Virus record (IMG/VR): IMGVR_UViG_3300025287_000004
Location: 1 to 42,218 of that record
Strand: one strand, 5' to 3'
Source: a virus
Lineage: Duplodnaviria > Caudoviricetes
DNA length: 42,218 bases
This document shows, in pieces, positions 2,285-19,493 of the stretch. Under the pieces are notes generated by a model. It was given only the letters and a program-made list of their open reading frames with translations, did no database searches and was not told the origin of the DNA. The translations under genes and the position numbers were made by a program. Positions within the stretch are counted from its first letter, which is position 1, and every line of letters starts with the position of its first letter.

Positions 2285-2688
2285 CAGTTGCCCCTTTTGC
2301 CTGTGTCCAGAGGGCGAGCCCGCCCCATGACGCCGTTTGCCCTTTGCGGCAGCGGCTCAACCTCGATGCCCATGCGGGCCGCCGTCTCCGGCCACTCGCG
2401 AATGGCATGGAGCACTGTCGTATGGTGGATGCCGTCGAAGAAGTTTCCGATCATCCGCAGCGACATATGCGGGCACTGCCGGGCGATCTCGTACATGGCA
2501 TGACGCCGTGCCGCTGCGTGCCGGCGGCTGTTGCGGGTCGAGCGCAGCCACGAAACCGTCACCCCGTGATCCGCAGCGACCTCCTGGACGATCCATGAGG
2601 CTGTCGGCTGCATCACCGCATCGGCGCGACGGTGTGCCTTGTCGTACCATCCGCGGAAGACGTGCGGCTGTTCGGTGTGTGTCTGCAT
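2284..2688 (-). CDS. DnaA C-terminal (domain IV)-like HTH protein
   Basis: 'ARRHAMYEI...SLRMIGNFFDGIHHTTVLHAIR' matches the DnaA domain IV signature (DHTTVxHA). Confidence 0.85.
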   Translation of the reverse strand: MQTHTEQPHVFRGWYDKAHRRADAVMQPTASWIVQEVAADHGVTVSWLRSTRNSRRHAAARRHAMYEIARQCPHMSLRMIGNFFDGIHHTTVLHAIREWPETAARMGIEVEPLPQRANGVMGRARPLDTGKRGN

Positions 2689-3197
2689 CAGCGGCGGGCC
2701 TCCTCTTCCTTGATCATTCTGGAGCTGCGGAAGAACCGTTCCAGCGCGGCCTTGGCTTCCTCGCCAGTCGGCGTGCGGGCGGTCTTCGCTTCCTCGATGG
2801 CGGCGGCGTTCTCGGCGGCGAGCCGGCGCATCCGGGCGGCGTTCTCTTCACGCTGGCGTGCCCAATCGGCGAGCCGACGCACCTCCTGTGCGAACTCGTC
2901 GGACTTCGGCACCCAGCCAACGCGGCTCTTGTGACGGTCCACCAGACCGTCGAGAAAGCGCGTCACGGCCTGTTCGATCGCCCACGCCGGCTCCTTCGTC
3001 AGAGGCCGCACGTAGACCGCCATGGCCTCCTTGCGCTCCTGTTCGCCGCGCGCTGTGTCCTCGAACTTCCGGTCGCTCGCGAGATTGCGGAACAGCGGGC
3101 CGAGAAGGCGAAGCGCCTCCTTCGGATCACACGGCGTCAGGTCCGTCGAGAGCGCGGGGCTAGTGATGCGTGCTGTGGTCGAGGGCAAAGAGCCCAT
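2688..3197 (-). CDS. Hypothetical replication-associated protein (helicase loader position)
   Basis: Follows the initiator-like gene; coupled reading frames. Confidence 0.6.
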   Translation of the reverse strand: MGSLPSTTARITSPALSTDLTPCDPKEALRLLGPLFRNLASDRKFEDTARGEQERKEAMAVYVRPLTKEPAWAIEQAVTRFLDGLVDRHKSRVGWVPKSDEFAQEVRRLADWARQREENAARMRRLAAENAAAIEEAKTARTPTGEEAKAALERFFRSSRMIKEEEARR

Positions 3198-3501
3198 AAG
3201 CCTCTCCGTCGAGCATGCTGATCATCTCGTCCTGAGCGTCAGCGAGGTTGCGGGCGAAGTGTTTGGACGGGCCGGACGGGGCTTCCACCTCGTCCTCCCA
3301 GCGCCAGCCGCGAAGCCACGTGGCCGGGTACGGCAGGAACTGCTTGTCCTTCGCAGCCATCACCGGGAGTTGCCGGCGCAGCCCATCCAGGATGGTCGAG
3401 GGCTGGATGCCTTCCTTGATGACCTGCCGCCATGCCTTCTCGGCATCCTTGCGGGCGATGTGGCGGGGGTAGAGGGCGTAGAAGTCGGCGAAGTTGGTCA
3501 T
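3160..3501 (-). CDS. Stand-alone C-terminal domain of a phage replication initiator
   Basis: 'FADFYALYPRHIARKDAEKAW...FLPYPATWLRGWRWEDE'; ATG at 3501 overlaps the upstream stop (TGATG). Confidence 0.75.
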   Translation of the reverse strand: MTNFADFYALYPRHIARKDAEKAWRQVIKEGIQPSTILDGLRRQLPVMAAKDKQFLPYPATWLRGWRWEDEVEAPSGPSKHFARNLADAQDEMISMLDGEAYGLFALDHSTHH

Positions 3502-9164: not shown

Positions 9165-9924
9165 CAAGGTTCTCCGCAAATTCATTGAGAAGGGCTGCCG
9201 CCTTCTGGACGGCATGGATGTTCGCGACTTGGCTGTCGTCGCGTTCGCGCAACCCTTGGGCGGCGCGGTTCATGTTCTCGTCGGTCGCCCATTCCGCGAA
9301 GGCGCGGCAGACGCCGTAGAGGTGCGTCCAAGCCTTTCCGGCCTCGGTCGGGGCGCGATACATCGGGTTCTTGTTCGATGGCGCTGGCGAGCCTGTACGG
9401 CCCTGCAATCCCATCTTCGAAGCTTCGATGATCTCGCGTCGGAGGGCGGCCTTTGTCGGCTCTGCCCCGCGTTCCAGCATCCCATCGAGAGCGCGGCGTG
9501 TGATGCCGGGATCGGCTACTTCCGCATCCCGAAATTGGCGAGCTTGGTGCACTTCCTTGGAGGTGAGCCCAATATCCGCAACAGTCGAAGAAGTATTCCC
9601 GTCGGGAAGACTTTTCGGGCGGCCAGAGGAAACCTCGCCGCGCTCTTGCGCCGCGTCGTATTCATCCGCCAACCGGCGCTGAGCCTGAGCGATGATCTCG
9701 TTCGCATCGGCCTGCGCCCGGAGAGCTGCCGCCGTCACCGTGTCGTGTGCGCCCTTGGCGTCCGCCAGACGGCGAGCCCGCTTGGCTTCGTCGTAGACGA
9801 TCTCAGCGGAGACTTTGGCTTCGAGGATTTCAGCCGCCGTGGTCGCGTTAGCGAGGCGGTTGGAAGCCTGCTGGAGCATTGCCGGAAGGCTTGCCGACTG
9901 TTCGATGGGGGCCATCAGGTTCAT
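9154..9924 (-). CDS. Hypothetical protein downstream of cro
   Basis: GAGGTG RBS; helical N-terminal region 'RRLADEYDAAQERGEV'. Confidence 0.75.
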   Translation of the reverse strand: MNLMAPIEQSASLPAMLQQASNRLANATTAAEILEAKVSAEIVYDEAKRARRLADAKGAHDTVTAAALRAQADANEIIAQAQRRLADEYDAAQERGEVSSGRPKSLPDGNTSSTVADIGLTSKEVHQARQFRDAEVADPGITRRALDGMLERGAEPTKAALRREIIEASKMGLQGRTGSPAPSNKNPMYRAPTEAGKAWTHLYGVCRAFAEWATDENMNRAAQGLRERDDSQVANIHAVQKAAALLNEFAENLDAH

Positions 9925-10124
9925 GCCGCCACCTCAGGCTTTTCGCCGAAGATGTCCGGGCGAATGTCGTGCCGCGAGATCCCTGTGATCCGCTCCATGT
10001 CGAGGACACGGCTCGCCGGCACCTTCTTCCAGGAATGCAGGCTGGGATGTTCGATGCCGAGTTCACGTGCGAGCGCTACTACGCCCCCCGCCTTCTCCGC
10101 TGCCTGTTTGACGATGGTGATCAT
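9921..10124 (-). CDS. cro: Cro-like repressor (YdaS family)
   Basis: 'GGVVALARELGI...SW..VP...ITGISRHDIRPDIF'; divergent from cI. Confidence 0.88.
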   Translation of the reverse strand: MITIVKQAAEKAGGVVALARELGIEHPSLHSWKKVPASRVLDMERITGISRHDIRPDIFGEKPEVAA

Positions 10125-10132
10125 GGATTACA

Positions 10133-10200
10133 GTAGTAGGCGAGCCCTACCTACGTCGTCAAGCAAAAAAGTAGGTGTGGATAAAGTAGGGATTCCCTAC
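10133..10200. promoter_or_regulatory. Right operator/promoter region
   Basis: GTAGG-N5-CCTAC at 10136-10150 and 10186-10200; minus-strand TTGACG (10157-10162) ahead of cro. Confidence 0.8.
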
Positions 10201-10208
10201 AAGGCACC

Positions 10209-10901
10209 ATGAGCACGATTGGCCAGAGAATTCTCCGGGCGCGAATGCGCAAAGGGCTTACGCAACAGAACGTTGCCAAGCACTTCGGCATCAATCGCGT
10301 CTCCGTCGCCAACTGGGAAAGCGGCGCGACCAAGCCGGCAATTGATAAGCTAGAAGGACTATCCAACCTGCTCGGCGGTGATGCAGACTGGTATCTCCAC
10401 GGGAAGGGAACGCCTCCTTCCGACGAAATGCCAGCGATCCCGAGCGAACATACGGCACCTGCGGCGGTGTCCAATGCTCAGATAGGAGAAAGGGTTACAC
10501 AGGTCGGGTTTCGAGTTCCGGTCTACGGACAGGCTGTCGGCGGGGCAGATGGAGAGTTTGTCTTGAACGGAAACCACTTGTACGACCTGATGGCGCCGCC
10601 TTCGATTGCCCCGAGTTCAGGTGCCTATGCTGTAACTGTATCCGGCGAGTCTATGGCTCCTCGATATGAGGACGGCGAGATCGCCTTCGTTGACCCCCGC
10701 CGCCGGCCACGCCGAGGCAGTTATGTCGTCGCCCAGATCCAGCTTGAGGAACACGGCCCCATCTTGGCCTTCGTGAAGCGCTTCGTCCGGCACAATGCGG
10801 ATGGCCTCGTCCTGGAGCAGTTCAACCCGGCGAAGGAACTGCGCTTCGATCACCAATGCGTCCGTTCGGTGCACTGCATTGTGATGGCCGGCGAAAGCTG
10901 A
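10209..10901 (+). CDS. cI: CI-like repressor (XRE HTH + S24 peptidase)
   Basis: HTH 'LTQQNVAKHFGINRVSVANWESG'; catalytic Ser 'GESM' and Lys 'VKRF'. Confidence 0.93.
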   Translation: MSTIGQRILRARMRKGLTQQNVAKHFGINRVSVANWESGATKPAIDKLEGLSNLLGGDADWYLHGKGTPPSDEMPAIPSEHTAPAAVSNAQIGERVTQVGFRVPVYGQAVGGADGEFVLNGNHLYDLMAPPSIAPSSGAYAVTVSGESMAPRYEDGEIAFVDPRRRPRRGSYVVAQIQLEEHGPILAFVKRFVRHNADGLVLEQFNPAKELRFDHQCVRSVHCIVMAGES

Positions 10902-10992
10902 TTTCGGCGCGCGCTTCTCTGCATATCCTTCTCTGTTAGAGCCTTCGTTTCCTAAGCCCTGAACCAGAGTAAGGGAGGGAGCGGAGGCAAAG

Positions 10993-11187
10993 CCCCCCCT
11001 ACCCCCATGGGCCGAAGCTCATGAAGGCAGAGGGACGTTTGCCATGCTGGCCTGAACCGTCGTTCGGTCGGTCGCATACGGCAGGGCGCCTCATCGGTTG
11101 GCCCGTCCTTAGTTTCCGGTAGCACCTTAGGACTTTCGACCCCGCGCCTCGCGCTCAGCCGGCGGGATTTGCACCCGTCTGCGCGAA
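10993..11187 (-). ncRNA. Putative repressor-controlled structured RNA ending in a G5-UA-G7 tract
   Basis: Promoter TTGACC-N17-TAGGTA; T-loop-like hairpin 11163-11177; 15-bp stem capped by C(UUCG)G at 10995-11034. Confidence 0.55.
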
Positions 11188-11192
11188 GCACC

Positions 11193-11265
11193 TACCTACG
11201 CCGCCGCAAGAAGTAGGTCAAGGCTACTTTTCCGCTTGACATGCAGCGTAGGGGTGGCCTACATT
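11193..11265. promoter_or_regulatory. Left operator region with back-to-back promoters
   Basis: Operators GTAGG-N5-GCTAC (11213-11227) and GTAGG-N5-CCTAC (11248-11262); plus TTGACA-N18-TACATT; minus TTGACC-N17-TAGGTA. Confidence 0.8.
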
Positions 11266-11324
11266 CCAACTCACAGGGGCACCCGCCCCCGCCAATCGAA
11301 ACGCACCGAACCCGGAGCCAACAG

Positions 11325-11453
11325 ATGACCGCAGTCGAGCAGCACGCCAACGTTTGGATGATCGTCCGCCGCAACAGCGAAGGCGTCGTCAGTGTCATCC
11401 GCTCCTTCCGCACCGAGCGCGCCGCGTTGAACGCGATGGGGCGGCTGTCGTGA
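11325..11453 (+). CDS. 42-aa hypothetical protein, first gene of the plus-strand early operon
   Basis: GGAG RBS; GTGA overlap with the next gene. Confidence 0.6.
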   Translation: MTAVEQHANVWMIVRRNSEGVVSVIRSFRTERAALNAMGRLS

Positions 11454-11728
11454 GCCCTGATGCAAAAATCGCCTGCTACCAGATCGCATGTGACGCAGCG
11501 GTGGAGGCTTACGTCATTTCACGACTGCGCGACGAAGCCAAGGCAATCTTGCTTGGCGAGATGAAGCCGAAGGAATCGCCGTCTGCGGTCGGCATGCTGG
11601 AAGAGTTCGGGCTGATCATTCCGAAATACCCAGATGAGCGGCCATTCGTGTGGGTGTTTGCCCGTACTCCGCTCGGCAAGCGCGTCAGGGACCGACTGCG
11701 CGAAGAATTAGCGGACGTAGCCGCCTGA
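11450..11728 (+). CDS. Hypothetical protein
   Basis: GTG start overlapping the upstream stop. Confidence 0.65.
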   Translation: MSPDAKIACYQIACDAAVEAYVISRLRDEAKAILLGEMKPKESPSAVGMLEEFGLIIPKYPDERPFVWVFARTPLGKRVRDRLREELADVAA

Positions 11729-11786
11729 ACCCCTCGGGGCCAAGTGCCCCGCCCCTCCCCATAGAACGCCATACGGAGAGACGAAG

Positions 11787-12185
11787 ATGGACCACAAGCA
11801 AATTCAGACCGTAACGAACCGCCTTGCAAAGGCGATGACCGCGAAGGGGCTCCGGGAGCCTTCAGCAGAGGTTCAGATCGAAAGCCACGCAGAGATGACC
11901 ATCGTCATGCGATGGAAAGACGCTCGCGTCGAGACCTACATCTCGGACAGCAAATACAAGTTCATTCGAGGCGGCGATCTCAAAGAGATGATCGCAGAAG
12001 CTGACGCCTACATCGCAGAGCTTCCCAGCGCCGAAGAAACTCGGATGAACGAGTTCATGGGCGCCCTCGGGAAGGTCATCGATCTTGGCCGGAAGAACGG
12101 CGTCGAAGCCGACTACCTGAACCCGCTGGTCGCTTCGATGAAGAAGCTCTCCGAGAACATCATCACGCACGACCGCGCGGCCTGA
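11787..12185 (+). CDS. Hypothetical protein
   Basis: GGAG RBS, 132-aa ORF. Confidence 0.8.
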   Translation: MDHKQIQTVTNRLAKAMTAKGLREPSAEVQIESHAEMTIVMRWKDARVETYISDSKYKFIRGGDLKEMIAEADAYIAELPSAEETRMNEFMGALGKVIDLGRKNGVEADYLNPLVASMKKLSENIITHDRAA

Positions 12186-12235
12186 CCCCAACCCCCACCC
12201 CCAGCAGCCAAGCGCTGCCAACCGGAGGACAGAGC

Positions 12236-12592
12236 ATGACGACGGAAGCAAAGCACACGCCGGGACCTTGGACTGCTGTCAAAGGCGACCACGGGGAGAG
12301 TTGGGGCGGGTACTGGCAGATCGATGCAGAATTTGACGCCGTAGCCTGCAACCAATTCTGCCACGCCGGCGCAAGGGATCAAGCCGTCTCTGAAGCGAAT
12401 GCCCACCTGATCGCCGCCGCGCCCAATCTGCTATCCGCGCTGGAGCGCCTCGACGCCGACTGGACCAAGACATTCCCGGACGGGCCTGAAGGTTCGCTGG
12501 ACTACTACGGCATCGGCAAGATGGCCGACGAAACCGTGAGCATCTGGCGAGACATCCGCGCTGCTCTGGCAAAAGCGCGGGGGCAGTCATGA
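12236..12592 (+). CDS. Phage early protein (KHTPGPW...ANAxLIAAAP type)
   Basis: GGAGG RBS and characteristic motifs. Confidence 0.8.
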   Translation: MTTEAKHTPGPWTAVKGDHGESWGGYWQIDAEFDAVACNQFCHAGARDQAVSEANAHLIAAAPNLLSALERLDADWTKTFPDGPEGSLDYYGIGKMADETVSIWRDIRAALAKARGQS

Positions 12593-18241: not shown

Positions 18242-18699
18242 TGCTTGATCGTGCCATGTCCCTCGACGACGCCGCCCGTGTGCTGGGCATTGACGAGGAG
18301 AGCGAGAACCCGTCGCGCTATGTCCGCGATCTCATCCGACGCTATGGCGTCCCCTTCACGCGCGTTGGCCGGTCTGTAAAGCTGCGCCCTGATCAGTTAC
18401 GCCTTCTCGGCGAGAGGATGGTAGAATGCCCCTCACACTCGAACCCGACAAGAAGTCCGGCATCTACCAGATCCGCGGAACCGTCACCGTCTGGACGGGT
18501 GGTCAGCCTCGCAGCATTGAAGTCCGACGCTCAACGCGCACCCGCAACCGAAAAGAAGCCGACGCCATCCGCCGGCAAATCGAAGGTGAGGTCTCGGAGC
18601 GCAGCATCACCGGTCGCGAACCCGCTATCACGTTCGAAGAGGCGGCCCGTCTCTATCAGCGGAAGGGCGGAGAAGCCCGCTTCCTCGCCAAGCCGTTAG
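18241..18699 (+). CDS. xis: Excisionase-like HTH protein
   Basis: 'MSLDDAARVLG...FTRVGRSVKL' winged HTH directly before int. Confidence 0.7.
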   Translation: MLDRAMSLDDAARVLGIDEESENPSRYVRDLIRRYGVPFTRVGRSVKLRPDQLRLLGERMVECPSHSNPTRSPASTRSAEPSPSGRVVSLAALKSDAQRAPATEKKPTPSAGKSKVRSRSAASPVANPLSRSKRRPVSISGRAEKPASSPSR

Positions 18700-19493
18700 C
18701 CCACCTCGGCGATCACCGCATTGACGAGATCGGCCAGCCGGAGATCGACGACGCTGCGCTGAAGGCATACCCCGCCGCGAAGCCGGCCACAGTGCGCCGC
18801 CAGTTCTACGCGCCCACCCTCGCCGTTCTTCGAGCCAATGGGCAGAACCCGTTTGTGAAGCGCCCTGACGATAGCGCCAAACGGACATATTTCTTCTTGC
18901 CTGCGAAGGCAGATGCGCTGATCGAGGCGGTCGTGGGCGGGAGGTGGCCTAACCCTTGGTCCCCTGCTCTCGTCACATTCCTGTTCGGCCAAGGAGCGCG
19001 CATCTCGGAGGCGCTGGCGATCGACGGTCGCGACGATGTTTCTCTTGAGCATCGCTATGTCATTCTGCGCGATCCGAAGAACGGGCTGCAACGGACGGTC
19101 AATCTGATCCCCCGCGTCGTGGCCGCGCTCTCTGCGATCCCGAACATCGGCCAGCCGGGGCCGCTCTTCCTGCGCTATGATGGCCGGCCCTATGCCAGCC
19201 GAGCGAACAGCGGGAACCCATTGCGGTTCTGGGGCGCGGCGTGCGGTCGCATCGGCCTTGATGAACACCTCTACACCCCGCACACCGCTCGGCACTCATG
19301 GGCAACATGGTTCCACGCGCAGACGCATGACGTGGTGCGCCTCAAGGACGAAGGCGGGTGGCAGTCGAACGAGTGGCAGCGATACGTGAAGCTCGGCACA
19401 CCGGAGCTTGGCGCCGACGCCTGGAAGCGCGGATGGCGCTTTGTGAACGAGACCGGAACAGACTCTGCGGATTTCTTGCGGAAACGAGGCTGA
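18426..19493 (+). CDS. int: Tyrosine integrase
   Basis: 'GARISEAL', 'PKNG', 'HTARHSWAT', 'GGW', 'RYV' catalytic motifs; adjacent to att. Confidence 0.93.
   Translation: MPLTLEPDKKSGIYQIRGTVTVWTGGQPRSIEVRRSTRTRNRKEADAIRRQIEGEVSERSITGREPAITFEEAARLYQRKGGEARFLAKPLAHLGDHRIDEIGQPEIDDAALKAYPAAKPATVRRQFYAPTLAVLRANGQNPFVKRPDDSAKRTYFFLPAKADALIEAVVGGRWPNPWSPALVTFLFGQGARISEALAIDGRDDVSLEHRYVILRDPKNGLQRTVNLIPRVVAALSAIPNIGQPGPLFLRYDGRPYASRANSGNPLRFWGAACGRIGLDEHLYTPHTARHSWATWFHAQTHDVVRLKDEGGWQSNEWQRYVKLGTPELGADAWKRGWRFVNETGTDSADFLRKRG

Follow-up and report, generated by a model that had tools for sequence, protein, structure and literature searches.

Among the 42,218 bases analysed here (the window, i.e., the complete virus record IMGVR_UViG_3300025287_000004, with terminal repeats; Duplodnaviria, Caudoviricetes), positions 11186-10958 on the minus strand encode a member of a real, uncatalogued family of structured RNAs of about 230 nt, which we found in 42 distinct copies. 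From the comparison of related phages, we think it rather probable that this conserved non-coding element is a replication origin, which is opened by its own transcript in place of the iteron-binding domain of an initiator protein. What sister phages carry at the same site is the main argument for this reading.

The window, whose sequence is present in marine or aquatic metagenome DNA runs, has a lambdoid early region with cro (9921-10124, minus strand), a cI-type repressor gene (10209-10901, plus strand) that is convergent with the RNA, a PL-type early promoter TTGACA-N18-TACATT (11236-11265, plus strand) and an integrase gene (18426-19493). In the following, "slot" denotes the site divergent from PL that holds the RNA in the window and other elements in relatives. 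The predicted promoter of the RNA, TTGACC-N17-TAGGTA (11193-11221, minus strand; -35 at 11221-11216, -10 at 11198-11193), lies back to back with PL and was found where a preliminary description of this DNA had placed it. A simple sigma-70 scan does not list it and has PL at 11236 as its sole entry; TTGAC-like hexamers are seen upstream of many homologues. No RNA run occurs among 20 runs listed for the window, which says nothing for or against expression, and four DNA runs compared to the region yielded partial homologues only. As also described before, the TTGACC hexamer falls inside an operator-like palindrome, GTAGS-N5-SCTAC, at 11213-11227. This motif has four matches in the window (at 10136, 10186, 11213 and 11248, with 0.03 expected), which are restricted to cro/cI (10136-10150, 10186-10200) and to the promoter pair of PL (11248-11262) and the RNA. 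Similar palindromes adjoin the -35 in two phages with related repressors (L010, L026), and we infer that the repressor binds at these sites.

Two further regions of the window were noted. A long non-coding stretch (860-1373) follows the late-control gene and carries a TTGACA promoter candidate as well as two exact copies (1039-1061, 1170-1192) of a 23-nt self-complementary unit; it is possibly a late-leader antitermination RNA. Positions 2284-2688 encode a stand-alone DnaA domain IV-like helix-turn-helix protein (PF08299), which is common in these phages.

Distribution of the RNA family

A search with a 19-base pattern returned 37 viral and 29 genome loci. Before counting, 8 of the viral and 15 of the genome loci as well as G214 were excluded as seed-only matches, and a profile search recognised 29 viral and 14 genome loci among the pattern matches as full-length homologues. 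A sample of 401 Hyphomicrobiales genomes gave 11 matches, 10 of which were confirmed. The total of 76 loci reduces to 42 distinct copies, with duplicated contigs counted a single time. All 14 named genomes with the RNA are from genera of the Hyphomicrobiales, with Pseudochrobactrum so placed by its recorded lineage; other named carriers are Mesorhizobium sp. J18, Kaistia adipata DSM 17808 and Aliihoeflea sp. 2WW. The RNA and the cro operon have the same orientation, and lambdoid layouts place the RNA back to back with PL; L021 and L030 have layouts unlike the lambdoid arrangement.

Two family members are found in records deposited as Synechococcus phages (L053, OM868082.1; L015, PP438429.1). 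The RNA is otherwise seen in Hyphomicrobiales genomes only, and the host label of these two records is perhaps worth checking. At three loci (L062, L253, L254) the element persists in apparent prophage remnants, in which one or two phage-like genes are succeeded by host genes.

Rfam 15 gave no match at E<=5 for window positions 9800-12400, and none at gathering score for six loci with slot elements or related sequences (L049, L174, L183, L170, L173, L156); no tRNA or tmRNA was found at the element. Likenesses to a hammerhead, to group II intron domains V/VI and to RNase P had no backing from Rfam or the covariation pattern and were dismissed. A coding explanation was rejected as well, i.e., the 79-aa minus-strand ORF at 10952-11191 is without family and homologues show frame-breaking indels. 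No small plasmid among 72,556 records has the element; the plasmid matches are prophage loci in large Pseudochrobactrum replicons only. Among the matches listed by full-text literature searches, none describes a phage element of this kind. For a phage structured-RNA catalogue (PMC10690425), seven supplementary files were searched for the motif without a match; its files 1 and 2 may bear on novelty.

Fold and internal repeats

On the minus strand, the 5' domain (11149-11186) is made up of helix P1 around a hairpin of T-loop type (11177-11163), together with the PK2 pseudoknot's 5' strand (11162-11159). It is followed by a pseudoknotted core (11105-11148) that covaries in the alignment and comprises helix P2 (11148-11144 with 11125-11121), strand X1 (11143-11138), helix P3 (11133-11126 with 11112-11105) and the 3' strand of PK2 (11119-11116), and then by hairpin P4 (11084-11104) with a GNRA-type loop in most homologues. 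Segment R1 (11049-11083), with W1 (11083-11080) and Y1 (11058-11051), precedes the terminal hairpin (10986-11043). The latter holds W' (11043-11040), X' (11036-11029), the UUCG loop (11017-11012) and, in its 3' part, the G5-UA-G7 tract with X2 (11006-10992) and W2 (10989-10986). Segment R2 (10958-10989), which ends in Y2 (10965-10958), would be a target of the RNA or an opening site. Between R2 and the cI stop codon lies a purine- and AT-enriched tract (10905-10957, minus strand), a weak candidate for an unwinding element: its AT fraction is 0.47 vs. 0.37 in the window, and the family mean of 0.56 downstream vs. 0.42 for the locus is barely above the promoter-side flank (0.52). GC/AT skew at the locus is confounded with the transcription switch.

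The hairpins named in the preliminary description were recovered, i.e., the T-loop hairpin and the long stem capped by C(UUCG)G, the latter with 15-16 bp including 4-5 G-U pairs. Its G5-UA-G7 tract is likewise present (11006-10993), but the proposal that the RNA ends there finds no support, since conservation extends about 35 nt beyond it, to 10958.

Folded alone, the window copy is no better than shuffles (z of -0.75), and the structure is therefore established by its homologues, for which a mean z of -2.5 was obtained (20 of the 40 aligned copies). The alignment (A6) covers 40 copies; L021 and L035, which have a divergent middle, were omitted. Mutual information over these copies indicates two pseudoknots. 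A 40-pair model (P1, T-loop arm, PK2, P2, P3, GNRA hairpin, W1:W', X1:X') has 88.9% of its cells paired, which compares to 42-51% for slid controls, with kinship ignored. The covariation check that had been suggested earlier finds the fold kept in homologues, with changes on both sides in 25 of the 40 pairs, a count that 0 of 500 shuffles reached (kinship again ignored); P2 is 100% paired (pair 79-96: 100% paired, 12 double changes).

The alternative terminal hairpin (X':X2) is 83.3% paired and shows changes on both sides in 9/15 pairs, again with kinship ignored; the folding energy of the terminal hairpin is -37.5 kcal/mol. X1 equals X2 in 38 of 40 copies with seven sequence variants, the window being among the two exceptions. 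Since X' is able to pair with either X1 or X2, the strands make up a two-state switch between the mutually exclusive hairpins X1:X' and X':X2; W' can similarly pair with W1 or W2. If the transcript is cut before the G-tract and folded, X1 lands on X'. Two G-runs of three or more are present in the transcript and non-template strand of 40/42 copies. The G-tract is also one arm of the covarying hairpin, and no G-C flips were observed in its stem across copies.

The 35 nt that follow the G-tract (R2) recur in R1 as a gapped direct copy, and the two covary. R1 scores 29.0 against its own R2 and 22.3 against the R2 of other copies (0/20,000 permutations as high), and the reverse-complement control is flat (18.0 vs. 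17.4). The W end of this repeat has a partner within the RNA. For the Y end, with a mean of 6.8 nt and 30 distinct cores, no such partner was found, i.e., none was better than in other homologues (4.25 vs. 4.40 nt, 36 copies). As far as the sequences tell, the Y1/Y2 copy fits both an RNA paired to the template strand and a pair of sites for a protein, and the covariation of R1 as a copy of R2 hints at RNA-template pairing. RNA-RNA pairing would by itself also account for the X and W repeats and for the G-tract. Wobble asymmetry was discarded as proof of RNA-DNA pairing, given that composition, i.e., the G-poor R2, confounds the G-to-A bias among R1/R2 mismatches (67 vs. 3; G-to-T 74 vs. 4). 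We claim the tail-vs-body repeat for this RNA family only, since for the other non-coding slot elements introduced below (families B, C and D) most of the 13 sequences compared do not exceed shuffles.

Replication genes and exchange of the slot

The window initiator is reduced to a C-terminal domain of 113 aa (3160-3501, minus strand), which matches phrog_270 at positions 178-258 only; the earlier claim that it is without a DNA-binding domain thus holds. The DNA upstream encodes a PNKP-type phosphatase. The adjoining gene (2688-3197, minus strand, 169 aa), for which an own profile was built from phrog_18745-like proteins, likely encodes a helicase loader, as judged from its position. An iteron array, also noted as missing before, is indeed not found near 3160-3501 among 17 repeat families. 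With a model of the initiator C-domain, Foldseek returned no match at E<=0.001, and the best VIA-align scores were Z 4.7 (SPP1 G39P) and 4.4 (DnaD-like domain).

To compare the replication genes of carriers, genes were called, cluster representatives were scanned against Pfam and PHROGs, incomplete loci were extended, and all reading frames were profile-scored. Carriers in which the replication region is out of view or gone (L030, L059, L067, L078, L248/L307, L062, L253, L254) are not among the 43 evaluable ones. Of these 43, 24 have DnaB alone, 5 a primase plus helicase, 12 only the initiator C-domain and 2 a full initiator, i.e., 41/43 carriers are without an N-domain initiator. The 12 C-domain-only carriers span three unrelated C-domain families. 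Both full-initiator carriers (L252, L289) belong to one lineage with a DUF1376 initiator. We discarded the idea of RNA decay in this lineage: L252 differs at 3/71 conserved columns, the same as the window.

An N-domain initiator is thus found in 2/43 RNA carriers and in 0/13 carriers of other slot elements, compared to 15/28 phages with an empty slot, where 5 of the 15 were found via an initiator search and bias this number. With repressor-only sampling, the counts are 0/12 (any slot element) vs. 10/17 (empty; Fisher p 0.0012, rows related), or 0/6 vs. 10/17 for the 11186-10958 family only (p 0.019, rows related). Adding three odd-layout controls changes the p-values to 0.0044 and 0.053, respectively. 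This repressor-anchored set excludes L223, L234 and loci that were short or duplicates, and gives the clade without replication genes a single count. A slot element is not required by the lack of an initiator, since 13/28 empty-slot phages are also without an N-domain initiator, seven of them forming one clade without visible replication genes. Furthermore, control proteins were the source of the N-domain profiles and many carrier proteins are without family, such that an unrecognised initiator is possible. Among 31 loci found with a DUF1376 initiator, one has the RNA, with the slot visible in only about seven.

Some related loci are of interest in their own right. Among 80 loci with relatives of the initiator C-domain (L084-L163), many are from lower-GC phages; the domain is stand-alone in 41/80, and none of the 80 has the 11186-10958 RNA, which speaks against the origin reading. 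One of them (L156, 9480-10000) carries a G5-TA-G6 tract in a non-coding stretch, 166 nt upstream of the C-domain, and is a candidate for a further family. Another (L115) has a full-length initiator gene with an antisense G-TA-G tract in the linker, about 40 nt before the C-domain. A large prophage-like clade (L189-L222) has cI, cro, the DnaA-domain-IV-like gene and the late-control gene with an empty slot and no replication genes seen; it is possibly non-replicating or domesticated.

We retrieved sister phages by a search with a carrier's DnaB. The DnaB proteins of L170, L171 and L172 are identical to rounding, that of L173 is 97% identical, and those of L174 and L175 are 82% identical to each other. 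These phages share the genes on either side of the slot. The slot itself holds family B in L170, the gene of a 96-aa protein in L171, the 11186-10958 RNA in L172, family C in L173 and L174, and the gene of a 116-aa protein in L175. That is, at 97-100% DnaB identity the slot contains either the RNA, one of two unrelated non-coding elements or a 96-aa mini-initiator.

The 96-aa protein of L171 matches phrog_270 positions 35-107 (E 1.3e-9) as well as O-like initiator families, i.e., it represents the half that is missing from the window initiator. Its gene is followed by two 18-nt direct repeats and then by DNA of AT 0.64, and L175 and L204 have the same layout. The slot proteins of the latter two gave no direct match (L175 against Pfam and PHROG; L204 none either). 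For L204, PF13730 is found in 2/8 homologues, and a model of the protein family is a winged helix (pLDDT 88.8) with CodY as best match (E 7e-4) and the initiator structures 4pt7 and 5kbj among the weaker rows. Each of these three loci (L171:3740-4160, L175:185-665, L204:10680-11168) combines a stand-alone winged-helix mini-initiator of 96-116 aa with two direct repeats and an AT-rich stretch, lies divergent from PL and apparently represents a split lambda-O-type origin.

Lambda O-type modules combine initiator gene, iterons and AT tract into an origin. The slot is likely an origin too, since the element replaces such an arrangement of initiator gene, iterons and AT tract in place, in phages without another initiator.

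Three further conserved non-coding elements occupy the slot. Family B (about 430 nt) is unrelated to the RNA and was found at L170:3602-4029 and L176:1946-2375 and in L257, L259, L262 and L203; in its carriers, either DnaB stands alone or the initiator is C-domain-only, and L170 has no Rfam match. Family C (L173:4021-4520 and L174:2611-3102, 72% alike over 358 nt) occurs in DnaB-only phages, also without Rfam match. Family D was observed in L183 (10786-11240), L184, L218, L236, L308 and L311, with a C-domain-only initiator in 6/6 evaluated carriers. L203 and L262 are composite, with a 5' part resembling D and a 3' part resembling B.

Proposed mechanism, alternatives and known systems

We consider origin function of the slot element probable, rate the chance that a persistent R-loop is its means as about even, and regard service of the RNA as a primer as unlikely. 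The preliminary proposal of an RNA-based origin has strong comparative support from the slot exchange and from carriers nearly always without a DNA-binding initiator. Its more specific form of a G-tract-stabilised primer fares less well: the G-tract is a hairpin arm, and five carriers encode their own primase, which is why we favour origin opening over priming. Absence of a primase, on which that proposal had drawn, is normal in lambdoid phages.

Upon induction, the repressor would leave the operator and host RNA polymerase would transcribe the RNA. Pairing of X1 with X' during synthesis may delay the terminal hairpin such that the G-tract stays hybridised to the C-rich template, and R1, as gapped copy of R2, would likely extend or anchor this hybrid immediately beyond the G-tract. 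The helicase could then load at the displaced strand and the AT-enriched tract, either via initiator C-domain and loader, as in the window, or via a phage DnaB, as in most relatives. Closure of the terminal hairpin would free the RNA and turn the origin off. A bolder version, which we hold to be possible but doubtful, treats the RNA as the initiator itself. Here, the pseudoknotted 5' domain would recruit the truncated initiator, the loader or the phage DnaB, and R1, as a built-in guide, would base-pair to the template strand of R2 and thereby open the duplex. The RNA would then be a 1:1 substitute for winged helix plus iterons and belong to a set of four or more unrelated RNA families that are swapped with a protein initiator at one slot.

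The elaborate fold also invites a different reading, i.e., an early lytic RNA acting in trans as protein scaffold, sponge or ribozyme, with the link to initiator loss due to shared ancestry and the origin located elsewhere, e.g., in the non-coding DNA that follows the late-control gene. T-loop, GNRA loop and two pseudoknots exceed the needs of a plain R-loop, the RNA and a full initiator coexist in one lineage, and the window does hold another long non-coding stretch with a 23-nt repeat (1039-1192). We still deem this improbable, since it explains neither why the slot is filled by a winged-helix gene, iterons and an AT tract in sisters with the same DnaB, nor the association across three C-domain families and two helicase modules. 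The latter initiator pattern is also left unaccounted for if the element is a terminator/antiterminator leader, i.e., an attenuator, of the accessory gene that often lies between element and cI. The alternate pairing of X' with X1 or X2 would suit such a leader, as would the same-strand gene that follows 21/42 copies (e.g., DUF5131 or DUF488). In the other 21/42, however, including the window, the following gene is convergent; conservation continues for about 35 nt beyond the stem; a terminator scan does not list the terminal hairpin; and there is no U-tract, with at most 4 T in the 8 nt after the stem in 34/38 scored copies. This makes attenuation quite improbable.

Similarly low is our estimate for an origin that acts as DNA, where transcription merely activates it and a phage or host protein, e.g., the 2284-2688 product, binds at R1/R2 (Y1/Y2) as its two sites. 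Transcriptional activation is known at lambda ori, covarying direct repeats could act like iterons, and PF08299 proteins are common in these phages. On the other hand, the strand-specific G-U pairs, the GNRA, UUCG and T-loops and the pseudoknot covariation indicate an RNA, many DnaB-only carriers are without PF08299 in their gene lists, and the clade without RNA or replication genes has such a protein. Finally, antisense or read-through control of the convergent cI, which the preliminary description had named as its alternative, appears very improbable. A gap of 57 nt separates the element from the cI stop codon in the window, and a repressor gene is the first convergent neighbour in about 11/42 copies; yet in about 31/42 copies other genes intervene, over up to several kb, and the conserved part has no complementarity to cI.

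Lambdoid phages are thought to begin replication with an iteron-binding protein, and a group of temperate phages of the Hyphomicrobiales appears to have repeatedly traded the iteron-binding domain for structured RNAs with the same helicase kept. If true, this explains prophages with a helicase but without an initiator and provides a natural protein-vs-RNA swap at one locus. An RNA origin would also supply a small, repressor-switchable, cis-acting replicon for rhizobia. Furthermore, it makes testable how a folding RNA chooses to form a persistent hybrid, a decision that a review calls still speculative even for ColE1 (PMC5043065).

By analogy, the RNA likely works like ColE1 RNA II or T4 oriF but belongs to neither. 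With ColE1, it would share an initiator-free origin and a folded non-coding transcript whose alternative pairings decide on hybrid formation (PMC5043065, PMC5703827). Both do without a replicon-encoded DNA-binding initiator, as is the case for the window (C-domain only) and for 41/43 carriers. In contrast, the RNA has no sequence or Rfam match to RNA II/RNA I, is found in prophages only and is linked to a DnaB, loader or initiator C-domain that the phage encodes. A promoter for an antisense RNA I was not seen, i.e., a consensus scan gave no plus-strand promoter within the element (the same scan misses the element's own predicted promoter), and control is predicted via the phage repressor instead. 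It is also shorter, with about 230 nt vs. about 550 nt for RNA II.

Mitochondrial CSB II resembles the element in its two short G-runs in transcript and non-template strand (here in 40/42 copies). The spelling G5AG7, given for it in the preliminary description, was not found in the text of PMC3488243, where the hybrid G-quadruplex is described as pulling the primer off the template rather than as a simple priming aid. The analogy is loose, since the quadruplex there removes the primer from the template; moreover, the G-tract is here normally one arm of an RNA hairpin.

T4 oriF/oriG combine a phage promoter with a downstream unwinding region and load the helicase onto the displaced strand, which would be alike here, and T4 R-loop formation is independent of specific sequence (PMC3016281). 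Unlike there, a pseudoknotted fold and internal repeats are conserved in the RNA family, and the phages are temperate and would use host polymerases.

Within the lambda O/P module, the initiator N-domain binds iterons, next to which an AT-rich region, the loader and DnaB take part. The phages studied here keep the loader/helicase side and the initiator C-domain and would likewise be under repressor control via transcription. The DNA-binding N-domain and the iteron array, in contrast, are absent from their cro operon, and origin function has apparently moved to the slot divergent from PL, in the form of either an RNA or a stand-alone N-domain with iterons.
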